DNA of 62,328 nucleotides, filler included, from Collodictyon triciliatum (lineage: Eukaryota): assembly GCA_043381765.1 (NCBI GenBank). It is 3 parts of 3 records of this genome, joined end to end, with 100 filler letters (N's around TTAATTAATTAA, not from the genome) between each part and the next. Parts side by side here need not be neighbours in the genome. Positions count along the whole stretch, not along the records: positions 1 to 24,027 come from JBHJMP010001104.1; positions 24,128 to 48,018 come from JBHJMP010001105.1; positions 48,119 to 62,328 come from JBHJMP010001128.1. One strand, written 5' to 3'. The notes under the pieces were generated by a model. It was not told the origin of the DNA and did no database searches. It worked only from the letters and a program-made list of their open reading frames with translations. The position numbers and the translations under genes are program-made. This document shows positions 6,195 through 56,554 of the stretch, piece after piece. The number at the start of each line of letters is the position of its first letter. Position 1 is the stretch's first letter.

Positions 6195-9100
6195 ATGCAG
6201 TCTCGCGTGGGGATTTTTCCTCTTGCCACGCGTGCGCTCGTCGTGCTCTTGGCCATAGCCGCAGCCATTGGTAGCACCAGCGCACAATCCGTAAGACGAA
6301 ACAAACAACACATGCCGTCTTTAGTATCAGCAAACGCGTCCGCACCGCTCAATCCCTTCTTTTCTGACACTCCACTTTGCCCTCTCAAAAGACTGTAATC
6401 AAGCAGCCTGGATACTGTGCCATGTACGGCACCTGTGCCAGGAGAACCGCGACCGGGACGATTAACTGCCCAGACAACGTCCCTGCAGTTCGCGTAAGAG
6501 CTCACTTATTCTGATCCTCGTCGTGCGAGTCTATGCAACTCTCATTGTGAAAGATATATGTTTGATATTCTCGTGTGATATAAATCATCGCAGGTGTCTT
6601 TATTTGTTACTGTTATATATTTTTTTGGGAGGGCTTTCTTCTACTTTTTATTTTTATTATTATTTTTTCCTTTATTCGATTCAAAGTTTTATTATTATTA
6701 TTATTATTATTATTATTATTATTATTATTATTATTATTATTATTATTATTATTATTATTATTATTATTATTATTATTATTATTATTATTAGTATTAGTAT
6801 TATTATTAGTATTATTGGGTTTTAATCTTTTACTGAACATTCATCGATGATTCTTTCCAAATGTTTTCACAGCCGAACTTCCTGATCGACTTGTGTCCTC
6901 AATTCCAAGATGCTGCGTGCTGCGATCAATCACAATACAATAATCTTGTAAAGAACATTGCAGTAACCACCCCTGTCTTTGGTCGCTGCGAGGCTTGCAT
7001 TGAAAATTTTAAGGTTCTTCCTGTTGTGATATAATATTATTACTGTAACCCAGCCTCGTAAAAGAATGGTTATCGTATCTCTTCTGATGGCCCTCTCCTC
7101 TAACCTATCACTTCATACAAAGTAACTCCTATTTTTGTATTTGGCCTGATAGACTTTCTGGTGTGAGTACACATGTAGTCCAAATCAATCCATGTTCACA
7201 GACGTTTTGGATACCACTGCGGAAGGAGCGCTCGTTGGAAGACGCATAGTTAATTCCAGTTCCTATCATATATCCCGCGAGTACTCCCAAAAGTTCTACG
7301 ACTCGTGCTCTGAGGTGCGACGGCCAATGCTGATAATTGTCCTAGATATTTGATGTATCATCCACCGCGGTAGTGTTTCATTATAGCATTTATAGCATCC
7401 CTGAGTTTATTCCTTTCCCTCCTTGGACTCTTTCCTGCCATAGGTGAAATTCGCAGCCACGGGGACAACAGTCTTTTCGCTATTTGGATGGGATCGTGGC
7501 TATGAAGAATGGTTCAGCTATATGGGCGATCCCGAGGAGTACTCTCCTTACCTCATCTCCTTTTTTTATGACACACCAGGTTCTGCTAACATGGGTTGCT
7601 TTTCATGCTCCGGGTAATCTTTTCAGCATTATTCTCTGTCCATTCGTTTCCATGGTGCCTTGAATACTCGTTGACCGCATGGCCCTAAATTTCTTTTATA
7701 TAAAGAGAGGAACACAAGTGTGCCTGCGCCGACTGTACACCCTCTTGCAAAGTGATTCCTTTCGAGCCTGAGATTATCGAGGTGACCATCCAACTGTTAT
7801 CATTTACTCTTTCTTTTTTAAAAGGGAAAAAGTGCACCCATTCACATCCTCAGTTTTGACCCTTCCCTGTCTCACACGCAAGCAGGCTGACACTTACCGA
7901 GTCAGCTTCTGATATATTTACCCTTTTCCTTTTTTTTTTCTCTCTCGCTTCATTTTCTTTCGATCTTAGGAATGCGAAATCACTGTCGGAGGAACGACAA
8001 CATCATGCTTAGGCTGGGGGCTGGCCTTTGGGTACATGGGTTTTTTGGCTTGCCTGCCCGCACTTATCTACGTTAGATACAAAGTGATGCGCCGCATCAA
8101 GGGGTACAGCTGGCTAGATGACTACCACATGGTTCTTGACGACGACGACGTTGCTGTCCAAGGAGCCATCAACAGCACCGAGACAAAAAAGAAGTATTTT
8201 TTCCGCCTGCCAGATTACTTGATCACTTATGTTGAATAGCGTACTACATACTTGCCAAACGCTCTTGAGATTCCTTACATCCTGCATGTATTTATCCGCT
8301 TAGCTATCTAAAACGTTACCTTTTCTCTCCTTGAAACAGGGGGCTATCTGGATACCTTCAGGACAAGTTCTTTGAAGTGGGTGTTTTCTGCACAAAATAT
8401 CCTTACATCGTCATTGGTTGCGGATTCATTTTCACTGCTGCTTTTGGTGCTGGTATTTCCCTTCTCGAACTGGTAATCATATTTATCATTAGACACCACC
8501 AGACCTTTTCTGATGTCTGTTCATCGCATATATTGCAAGTTGCGTCCTTTGTTCAGCCTGAAATATTTCTAAAGATGAATATATGAAGGAAACCAACCCA
8601 GTTGACCTGTGGGTCTCTAGCCGCTCCACAAGCAAGAAACGTATGGACTCATTTGATGAGCTTTTTACTCCATTCTACCGTGTCACGCAAGTCATCTTTG
8701 TCGACAAGGAGACCCCTGGTGGATATGTAGTCACGAAAAATAAGTTCCAGGAGGTACTATTCTCATCCTCCTCCCGTGAACTATGAAAGCTCTTTTTATT
8801 TTTATTTTTTTATTGGGCTCACAGAAATGAAAGAAGAAATAATACATGCCATGTAATCCCTCACTCCCTCAAGCATCTTACACAAAATTCATCCCCTAGG
8901 TCATCGATTTCCAAGAGAAAGTGAAGGCTATGAATTTCTGGTACAAAGGAAACAACTACACTTACGACGAGGTCTGTAACAAGCCCGTCCGTGGGTATGG
9001 TTGCATTGTACAGAGCCCTCTCGCTTGGTGGCAAAATGATCCTGAAGAGTTTGCCAAGTACCAAACTGACCAGGAAGTTCAAGACAAAGTGGCTGTGTGC

Positions 9101-56000: not shown

Positions 56001-56554
56001 TAAGCCACAGGAAAGGAGAGGAATCCAGACGAATCAGACAAATGAATAAAAATGCGCGCATTCATGCATAATCAGCAACAATAGATTGTATTTTAATTTC
56101 ATTCCTTTGAATCGAATAAAAGGGAGAAAGTCTTGTAATTACATTCGTTGCGAGTTTCTCCTGTTCAAGTTTCCTTTCGAGTAGCTCTCTGCGGCGATCC
56201 ACATAAACGTCGGCATATCTCCGGCTATTTTTTCTGCGTTTGCAAACGAGGTTTCTTTTTAGAAAAAAGTAAACTGTTTGATATAATAATGAGAAAATGA
56301 TTTATCTCACTCGAGTATTTACTAAAGGTAGGCTGTTGTCAATGACAAAAGAGCGGAACAGGGAAATACCTGGTTGGAAACGTCGCCTTTGACGAGCATC
56401 GGGCATTGCGGCGAACAAAGAAATGGTAGTCCGAGGCAGAGATCAAATGGACCAGTGAGTTTGGACTGTCGTGTGGAATCGAGGAAGTCAGCGCCATGAA
56501 GGACGACGGTGTGCTTCTCGACGAGGACGAAGACGAGCCCTTGGACTGAGACAT
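53025..56554 (-). CDS. WDR13: WD40-repeat protein, WDR13-like (about 12 exons)
   Basis: [57 protein letters not shown] and LQGHSGEVLDVSWNYDESLLASCD..VILWKR match WDR13. Confidence 0.9.
54122..54144 (-). mobile_element. Micro-retroposon copy in a WDR13 intron, TSD degenerate
   Basis: Minus strand reads CTTTGAATCGAATAAAG-A6. Only TGAGAAA is shared between the flanks (54104-54110 and 54145-54151). Confidence 0.65.
55314..55331 (-). mobile_element. Micro-retroposon copy in a WDR13 intron
   Basis: Minus strand reads ATCGAATAAAGG-A6. Flanks 55296-55313 and 55332-55349 match at 16/18. Confidence 0.78.
56105..56130 (+). mobile_element. Micro-retroposon copy whose TSD spans a WDR13 splice donor
   Basis: CTTTGAATCGAATAAAAGGGAGAAAG; flanks 56089-56104 and 56131-56146 match at 13/16. 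Confidence 0.72.

Follow-up and report, generated by a model that had tools for sequence, protein, structure and literature searches.

Micro-inserts with two fixed 5' ends in Collodictyon triciliatum DNA probably derive from the very 3' end of a non-LTR LINE

Introduction

What are the very short A-tailed sequences that recur in both orientations in the DNA of Collodictyon triciliatum, and why do they begin at only two places? L1 and other LINEs of the poly(A) type leave 5'-truncated, 'dead on arrival' copies by target-primed reverse transcription (TPRT), and SINEs and other non-autonomous retroposons, which are short and numerous, depend on LINEs and share the LINE 3' end. An earlier note on this DNA had described the sequences as a separate micro-retroposon family with the TPRT footprint of a non-LTR element, and had offered two origins, retroposition of a defined tiny RNA or a hard stop of the reverse transcriptase (RT). 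We followed up these claims in the same window, that is, the whole stretch of 62,328 nucleotides, joined from three parts of the genome assembly.

Results

Searching the window for the exact core ATCGAATAAA, which contains AATAAA, gave seven matches (6671, 11745, 54129 and 55322 on the minus strand; 28425, 48541 and 56111 on the plus strand) where 0.31 were expected, and at least seven matches were found in 0 of 100 shuffles. With up to three mismatches allowed, the 22-mer CTTTGAATCGAATAAAGGAAAA matched five times (0.00 expected) and a 17-mer twelve times (0.93 expected) in the window. The twelve include six family copies and one probable copy at 62194, and four of them lie inside a purine-rich tandem repeat (29862-29929). 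A three-mismatch match to the 17-mer at 52932-52948 was rejected as a copy; it is in an AATAAA-rich region, and the X1 RNA contig of a minus-strand gene ends about 15-30 nt past it. The sample thus consists of eight copies (seven plus one probable) in a single 62-kb window, four on the plus and four on the minus strand, dispersed over 6.6-62.2 kb at a density of about one copy per 7-8 kb. They are listed here with a class that gives the distance of the 5' start from the A-run.

Copy 1, 6663-6686, minus strand, class -18: CTTTGAATCGAATAAAGG followed by A6, within an (AAT)n/(TAA)n array; duplication not judgeable
Copy 2, 11719-11777, minus strand, class -18: insert 11736-11760 (18 nt followed by A7), duplications 11761-11777 and 11719-11735
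Copy 3, 28408-28460, plus strand, class -12/-13: insert 28425-28443 (ATCGAATAAAGG followed by A7), duplications 28408-28424 and 28444-28460
Copy 4, 48516-48574, plus strand, class -18, older variant AATAAAAGG: insert 48535-48561, duplications 48516-48528 and 48562-48574
Copy 5, 54104-54162, minus strand, class -18: insert 54122-54144 (tail G followed by A6), decayed duplications 54145-54162 and 54104-54121
Copy 6, 55296-55349, minus strand, class -12/-13: insert 55314-55331 (ATCGAATAAAGG followed by A6), duplications 55332-55349 and 55296-55313
Copy 7, 56088-56146, plus strand, class -18, variant AATAAAAGG: insert 56105-56129 with decayed tail GAGAAA, duplications 56088-56104 and 56130-56146
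Probable copy 8, 62193-62210, plus strand, class -12/-13: AATTGAATAAAAGAAAAA, interrupting a (TTA)n array

Two tail variants are present: copies 1, 2 and 5 have AATAAAGG, and copies 4 and 7 have AATAAAAGG. The probable copy 8 (AATTGAATAAAAGAAAAA) is separated from the core by two transitions, one of them at a CpG. Seven of the eight sites named in the earlier note are true copies; the remaining one, 27066-27090 (GCTCGAATCGAATAAGGGGGGAGGGG), was rejected because both the A-run and the flanking repeat are absent. No other kind of A-tailed micro-insert was found in the window.

Copy-specific duplications of 13-18 nt abut both ends of the insert in all six copies that lie outside microsatellites, while those of 6671 and 62194 are not judgeable within their (TAA)n/(TTA)n arrays. 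The two 17-mers reported earlier as perfect (11719/11761 and 28408/28444) are both 17/17, the former being AAGAAGCATCCTCAACA of copy 2. In copy 4 the duplication matches at 13/13 positions, or 20/22 when extended to 48537/48583, followed by copy 6 (16/18), copy 7 (14/17) and copy 5 (12/18). Within the window, such flanking repeats exceeded background in an anchored test, in which the 12 nt directly 5' of the insert had to recur at most 45 nt downstream with at most two mismatches: five of the six testable copies were positive against a null of 1.8% per site, and the sixth, copy 5, has a null frequency of 0.0014 at its fixed offset. Throughout the window, outside tandem repeats, only three A-run inserts have an exact duplication of at least 10 nt, all of this family, as compared to 0-3 in displaced controls.

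A candidate parent was found in L027, a metagenome locus that may not belong to the organism of the window. L027 ends in the identical 18 nt followed by A10, and its positions 592-621 are identical to copy 11745 at 30/30 nt; upstream of position 592 there was no significant match to the window. Among 107 metagenome loci with ATCGAATAAAGGAAAAAA, L027 is the only one with CTTTGA ahead of it, against a chance expectation of about 0.03 (estimated as 107/4096). The other 106 were set aside as chance matches with no CTTTGA ahead, as were 20 of 20 matches in prokaryote genomes, which have no A-run, and the single match in a viral contig. About 390 nt upstream of the tail motif, L027 encodes a CX2CX10HX4C motif (ECTMCDSGDDSIEHTFVKC) that matches Pfam zf-RVT at E=8.6e-5; its 23.6 bits fall short of the 27.5-bit cutoff. 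Five relatives were scanned (P0003, P0007, P0010, P0013 and P0014) and all pass this cutoff, and the Atlas neighbours are zf-RVT clusters. By these profile matches, L027 is predicted to carry the CCHC zinc-knuckle (zf-RVT) end of an RT ORF (ORF2). The parent proposed in the earlier note, with RT and endonuclease ORFs, is matched in part: L027 shares the tail behind the zf-RVT end of ORF2, and its RT and endonuclease domains were not seen, as all nine matches to the ORF among 1.84 billion representatives cover only its C-terminal part. Eight of these are fragments of 45-253 aa and the ninth, in a protein of 835 aa, is weak and repetitive. No longer proteins matching the parent ORF were found in protein searches and no relatives in viral contigs, and a PDB profile search with the parent protein returned a single chance match (E=2).

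The four copies within 48119-59150 are all intronic, and three of them are within spliced-out CT..AC joints of RNA contigs, with skips of 189, 189 and 246 nt. Copy 5 is in an intron of a minus-strand gene spliced out between 54019 and 54209, in sense orientation, and copy 6 in one spliced out between 55196 and 55386, also sense. Copy 7 runs antisense to its gene, within an intron whose splice joins 55895 to 56142. The acceptor for copy 4, a sense copy, is at 48638|48639, some 77 nt downstream, and is marked by a contig loose end. Judging by the reading frame, which is NPC1-like, and by the donor AAG|GTTTGT, copy 2 (11745) is also probably intronic, 3 nt inside an intron of a plus-strand NPC1-like gene and antisense to it. 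The statement that nearly all copies are in introns thus holds for 4/4 copies in 48119-59150, and for 11745 at the strength of this prediction. Relative to the host genes, three copies are sense and two antisense. The introns that hold copies are not paralogous, and a reading of the two 189-nt introns as mutual duplicates was rejected, as they align at the core only.

Two of the four copies in 48119-59150 are also present in independent runs of RNA and DNA. Copy 4 (48541) is crossed by an X2 contig from about 48463 to 48859 at a depth of 38.5 and is present in an RNA contig of a second organism (organism B), and copy 6 (55322) is covered by X1 and X3 contigs with small indels only. Our guess is that X1 and X2 are RNA runs, which the spliced joints fit. 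When the four sites were checked for empty alleles, the two covered by other runs were both filled, and no insert-sized gap was seen at any of the four.

As reported earlier, five copies start with CTTTGA and two with ATCG, and the probable copy at 62194 starts with (A)ATTG. Measured from the A-run, five 5' starts are at -18 and three at -12/-13, with none longer, so that the broad spread of 5' truncation typical of LINE copies was not found. Searches of the window gave no copies of 19-60 nt; a core of less than 10 nt would escape detection. Folding gave no explanation for stops at -18 and -12/-13: the L027 3' UTR did not differ from shuffled sequences (z -0.23; last 51 nt, z -0.21), a single weak hairpin (-4 kcal/mol) borders -18, and the 25-nt insert itself is unfolded. 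Neither ARAGORN nor Rfam returned a match at the copies or in the tail of L027.

Discussion

Because L027 has these 18 nt and an A-run behind a zf-RVT ORF end, we read the inserts as extreme 5'-truncated LINE tails. Their likely source is the very 3' end of a zf-RVT-bearing, L1/Tx1-like non-LTR LINE, pasted in by TPRT. The footprint of a non-LTR element recognised in the earlier note agrees with the A-runs, the copy-specific duplications and the tail of the L027 parent, while the notion of a separate micro-retroposon family has to be given up, since each insert would be the last 12-18 nt plus the A-run of a LINE. Long-running activity, also suggested there, is supported by duplications that range from 17/17 to 12/18, by the two tail variants and by copy 48541, which the RNA contig of the second organism also has.

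The chemistry of TPRT, the type of endonuclease and the reason for the two stops are inferred, and the following order of events is proposed. The endonuclease of the element would nick AT-rich DNA, and the freed 3' end would serve as a primer on the LINE RNA, whose short A-run is where reverse transcription would begin. Synthesis of cDNA would end after about 12-13 or about 18-21 nt, and the short cDNA would be joined across a 13-18 bp staggered break via 0-3 nt of microhomology, giving an 18-27 bp insert flanked by 13-18 bp target-site duplications. Our best guess for the stops is pausing or dissociation of the RT, or a template switch, near the 3' end of the RNA.

Alternatively, the inserts may come from a defined tiny RNA: the transcript of the LINE, or one with the same end, would be cut at CA|CU and GA|AU, and polyadenylated fragments of 12-18 nt would be copied in trans by the LINE machinery. 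Two sharp 5' ends with none longer in eight copies, a -18 end common to both tail variants (AATAAAGG and AATAAAAGG) and the two of five class -18 junctions that lack microhomology all fit such an RNA. However, at six of the eight junctions 1-3 nt are identical to the LINE bases immediately upstream in L027, which lie beyond the supposed 5' end of the RNA; the total is 9 nt over eight junctions as compared to 3.2 nt expected (P=0.0145), which is unexpected from a pre-cut RNA. Neither was a tRNA-like element, a ribozyme or any other Rfam family found next to the boundary in L027. Since such microhomology agrees with a template that extends beyond the insert, this excess, itself modest, modestly favours an early stop on a longer RNA. 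Between the two origins offered earlier, the hard RT stop would thus be somewhat preferred and the tiny RNA stays a candidate, which we regard as unlikely.

A still less probable explanation is that truncation is smooth and ordinary, that selection in a compact region of short introns keeps the shortest copies, and that the two starts are an accident of small numbers. All placed copies are in short introns (189, 189 and 246 nt, plus two inferred), where long inserts would be harmful, and the sample is only eight copies; against this, eight ends on at most two positions have P=9e-4 if uniform over the seven positions spanned and 1e-4 over ten, and copies of 19-60 nt, although detectable, are missing. 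That the sequences are not insertions at all, but a conserved signal (intronic or for polyadenylation) or an artefact of assembly or adapters, deserves hardly any credence: the core does contain AATAAA and the unrelated AATAAA-rich match at 52932-52948 is close to the end of an RNA contig, but the copies have their own duplications at both ends, are identical to a LINE 3' end, lie in both orientations in their host genes, are present in contigs of independent runs (48541 and 55322) and, where sense, are in introns that spliced contigs skip.

The LINE-tail reading can be compared with known systems. As in 5'-truncated L1-type copies, the inserts combine the 3' end of an RT element, an A-run and variable duplications of 13-18 bp in both orientations, at target sites that go from T-rich into A-rich and in copies of differing age. 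They differ in that only 12-18 nt of the element are kept in 8/8 copies, in that there are two fixed 5' ends rather than a broad spread, and in A-runs of only 5-9 A even where the duplications are perfect. A SINE assignment was rejected: in contrast to SINEs, 12-18 nt of unique sequence are too short to hold an internal pol III promoter or a tRNA-, 7SL- or 5S-derived head, and neither ARAGORN nor Rfam gave a match.

Annealing-type 5' joining of LINE inserts, with L1 duplications of about 15 bp, is described by Yamaguchi, Kajikawa and Okada (2014, PMC4245944). The 0-3 nt of junction microhomology above chance and the duplication length are alike here, whereas in that work the junctions are spread along the element and here they fall on two sites at most 18 nt from the tail. 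For human SVA, PMC10681720 gives potential internal truncation hotspots hundreds of bases from the tail, which is a likeness in non-random 5' truncation of LINE-mobilised elements; the SVA inserts described there are, in contrast, not cut to less than 20 nt. A keyword search of open-access text found no description of LINE tails below 30 nt with fixed starts, which is weak evidence of absence, and the motif as a text string had no literature match.

If the two starts hold genome-wide, the LINE tails would provide a natural system for a LINE RT that quits just after initiation, and could show how very short cDNAs are sealed into a genome. A bolder version is that the LINE has a programmed or near-obligatory early exit, with its RNA cut or its RT stopped at 12-13 and 18 nt from the tail, and that its main product is a discrete 18-27 bp AATAAA micro-insert. 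This we hold to be doubtful. Were it true, the insert would be the smallest regular retroposed unit known, with steady short insertions by splice sites in a compact genome, and with thousands of copies if the density also holds genome-wide. If the pattern fails, these would be ordinary dead LINE tails of an uncharacterised family. For annotation, inserts of 18-27 bp escape repeat maskers, although in this window they account for a fifth of certain 189-nt introns, probably lie only 3 nt from a splice donor in the closest case, and place AATAAA in sense within host genes.

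Insertions and flanking duplications

The motif ATCGAATAAA was found 7 times in the window against 0.31 expected, and at least 7 matches occurred in 0 of 100 shuffles (all window statistics are based on 60,622 non-N bases). A 22-mer that spans CTTTGA and reaches into the first bases of the A-run gave 5 matches with up to 3 mismatches, against 0.00 expected. Numbered by core position, the copies are 1 (6671), 2 (11745), 3 (28425), 4 (48541), 5 (54129), 6 (55322), 7 (56111) and one more:

62193-62210, probable copy 8, AATTGAATAAAAGAAAAA, breaks up a (TTA)n array

The coordinates of the earlier note were borne out, and the 5' starts at CTTTGA (five) and ATCG (two) and the perfect 17-mer direct repeats at 11719/11761 and 28408/28444 were verified. 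One of the 8 listed sites was dropped as a copy: 27066-27090 (minus strand, GCTCGAATCGAATAAGGGGGGAGGGG) has 9 of 10 core bases, yet no A-run and no flanking repeat; long minus-strand ORFs, separated by 120 nt, lie on either side of it.

Two of the eight copies break up long (TAA)n/(TTA)n arrays (6640-6800; 62175-62328), which could be target preference or chance; a third array of this type, at about 22910-22985, has no copy inside. Duplications were judged outside such arrays, as the two array copies cannot be scored. In all six remaining copies a direct repeat adjoins both insert ends, matching at 17/17, 17/17, 13/13 (20/22 extended), 16/18, 14/17 and 12/18 positions. The 12 nt upstream of the insert were found again downstream (≤2 mismatches) in 5 of the 6, compared to 1.8% of random sites, and for the weakest duplication (12/18) the null frequency, at its fixed offset, is 0.0014. 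Scanning every window A-run of at least 6 A yielded three inserts with an exact repeat of at least 10 nt, all of this family, and no other insert outside tandem repeats; thus the insertion signature is specific to the LINE-tail sequence.

The parent LINE

Among 241 million metagenome records searched for ATCGAATAAAGGAAAAAA, 107 loci were obtained, 106 of which have unrelated bases in front of the motif. The sole locus with related bases there, L027, reads ...CTACACTTTGAATCGAATAAAGG and then A10 on its minus strand, and copy 11745 is identical to it at 30/30 positions; upstream of L027 position 592 no significant match to the window was found. Upstream of the tail, two open frames make up between them the C-terminal end of a retrotransposon ORF2 (motif ECTMCDSGDDSIEHTFVKC), which matches Pfam zf-RVT (zinc-binding in reverse transcriptase) with E=8.6e-5, below the curated cutoff. 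A phmmer search with this ORF against 1.84 billion representatives gave 9 hits, each on its C-terminal part: eight are fragments, 45-253 aa long, and the ninth is a weak, repetitive match within a protein of 835 aa. All five relatives scanned pass the zf-RVT cutoff. L027 itself is a dead LINE copy, because its ORF2 end (205-722, minus strand) is broken into two frames (57 aa and 133 aa) at a place where the relative P0001 reads through.

The tail identity and the zf-RVT ORF2 end together show the inserts to be the final 12-18 nt of a LINE with its A-run. The micro-retroposons of the earlier note thus stand as insertions with duplications, not as a family separate from LINEs: they are dead LINE tails truncated at the 5' end, a known kind that target-primed reverse transcription produces, here from an uncharacterised LINE family. 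The suggested search for a parent led to this LINE 3' end with zf-RVT; the RT and endonuclease domains were not recovered by longer-protein searches, a PDB profile search or from viral contigs. An L1/Tx1-like parent may be proposed from three features only: a zf-RVT end, an A-tail and duplications of 13-18 bp.

Two fixed start points

What is uncommon, on the evidence of eight copies in one window, is the extreme shortness and the two fixed start points. Five copies (1, 2, 4, 5 and 7) start at a C located 18 nt before the A-run and three start 12-13 nt ahead of it; no copy among the eight is longer than the -18 class, though the same window searches would catch longer ones. Eight ends on at most two positions have P=9e-4 if uniform over the 7 positions spanned. 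Both tail variants, AATAAAGG (copies 1, 2, 5) and AATAAAAGG (copies 4, 7), have the -18 start, and as the latter copies carry more decayed duplications, this start persisted over time.

The earlier note left open whether a tiny RNA is retroposed or the reverse transcriptase stops hard at one position. At 6 of 8 junctions the upstream duplication ends in the same bases that precede the junction in L027 (ACA, CA and A in the -18 class; A, A and A in the -12/-13 class). This microhomology adds up to 9 nt, where 3.2 would be expected (P=0.0145); the -18 class alone, with at least 6 nt, gives P=0.029, and a match at all three -12/-13 junctions P=0.026. It fits cDNAs from a longer template joined by short annealing, the route that PMC4245944 describes for truncated LINE inserts. 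A pre-cut RNA already ending at -18 would also give a fixed start, but the homology to LINE bases further upstream speaks modestly against it.

For stops on the longer template, modestly favored here, we found no cause in 3' UTR fold, hairpin, tRNA-like element or ribozyme: folding of the L027 3' UTR does not exceed that of shuffled sequences, a weak hairpin (-4 kcal/mol) ending at the -18 base is not significant, and neither a tRNA-like element nor a ribozyme was found at the L027 boundary. Keyword searches of open-access papers found no equivalent LINE tails; the nearest published parallel to the fixed start points comes from human SVA elements, which may have truncation hotspots.

Intron context and independent runs

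Contigs from four sequencing runs were aligned to 48119-59150. Those of runs X1 and X2 behave as RNA, with 11 CT..AC joints across a minus-strand gene at about 52.9-56.4 kb.

52919-56370, minus strand, gene from RNA contigs, with 11 introns, all short (90-262 nt skipped)
49909, plus strand, poly(A) site of a transcript; X1 and X2 RNA contigs end in loose A16-17

Copies 54129 and 55322 lie in sense within spliced-out introns of this gene and copy 56111 antisense within another. The two introns with sense copies are exactly 189 nt each and can be aligned to each other at the core only. A match with 3 mismatches at 52932 was excluded from the count; it lies upstream, by about 15-30 nt, of the point at which the X1 contig of this gene stops. 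Some 77 nt downstream of copy 48541 is an acceptor, cag|ATG (48638|48639), marked by an X1 loose end. An X2 contig (depth 38.5) runs unspliced across the copy (~48463-48859) with point differences only, one of them in the first duplication copy; since this contig carries the copy, the insertion is older than the split from organism B, the source of this RNA contig. Copy 55322 is spanned by X1 and X3 contigs with small indels only. With 48541 and 55322 covered by independent runs, the motif is not an assembly artefact, a possibility raised in the earlier note. No empty site was seen in the contigs of the four runs across 48119-59150.

Copy 11745 (copy 2, in 11714-11777) lies antisense in an inferred intron of an NPC1-like gene, 3 nt past the donor (AAG|GTTTGT). 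Its 17-nt duplication begins with the fourth intron base, which leaves the donor intact. Relative to host genes, three copies are sense and two antisense.

Other features of the window

The window encodes a TRIM-NHL protein (RING, B-box, NHL repeats), an NPC1-like sterol transporter and a Timeless fragment, and its introns are short.

29673-32870 and 45810-46169, ORF pieces with RING, NHL repeats and B-box, indicating at least one TRIM-NHL gene
18173-18246, plus strand, tRNA-Ala(AGC) gene, from both ARAGORN and Rfam
Ten N runs, 1,706 bases altogether, lying for the most part in low-complexity repeats and restricting where reads could be aligned
2330-2858, 15729-16058, 18547-18556, 24028-24127, 29787-29811, 43666-44202, 46752-46850 and 48019-48118, N spans

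The organism B contig has 22 extra letters at 52386 (TTATTTCTGTCTCTATTTTATT), an indel unrelated to the LINE tail. Words of one window stretch occur in two small runs and in freshwater and lake metagenomes.
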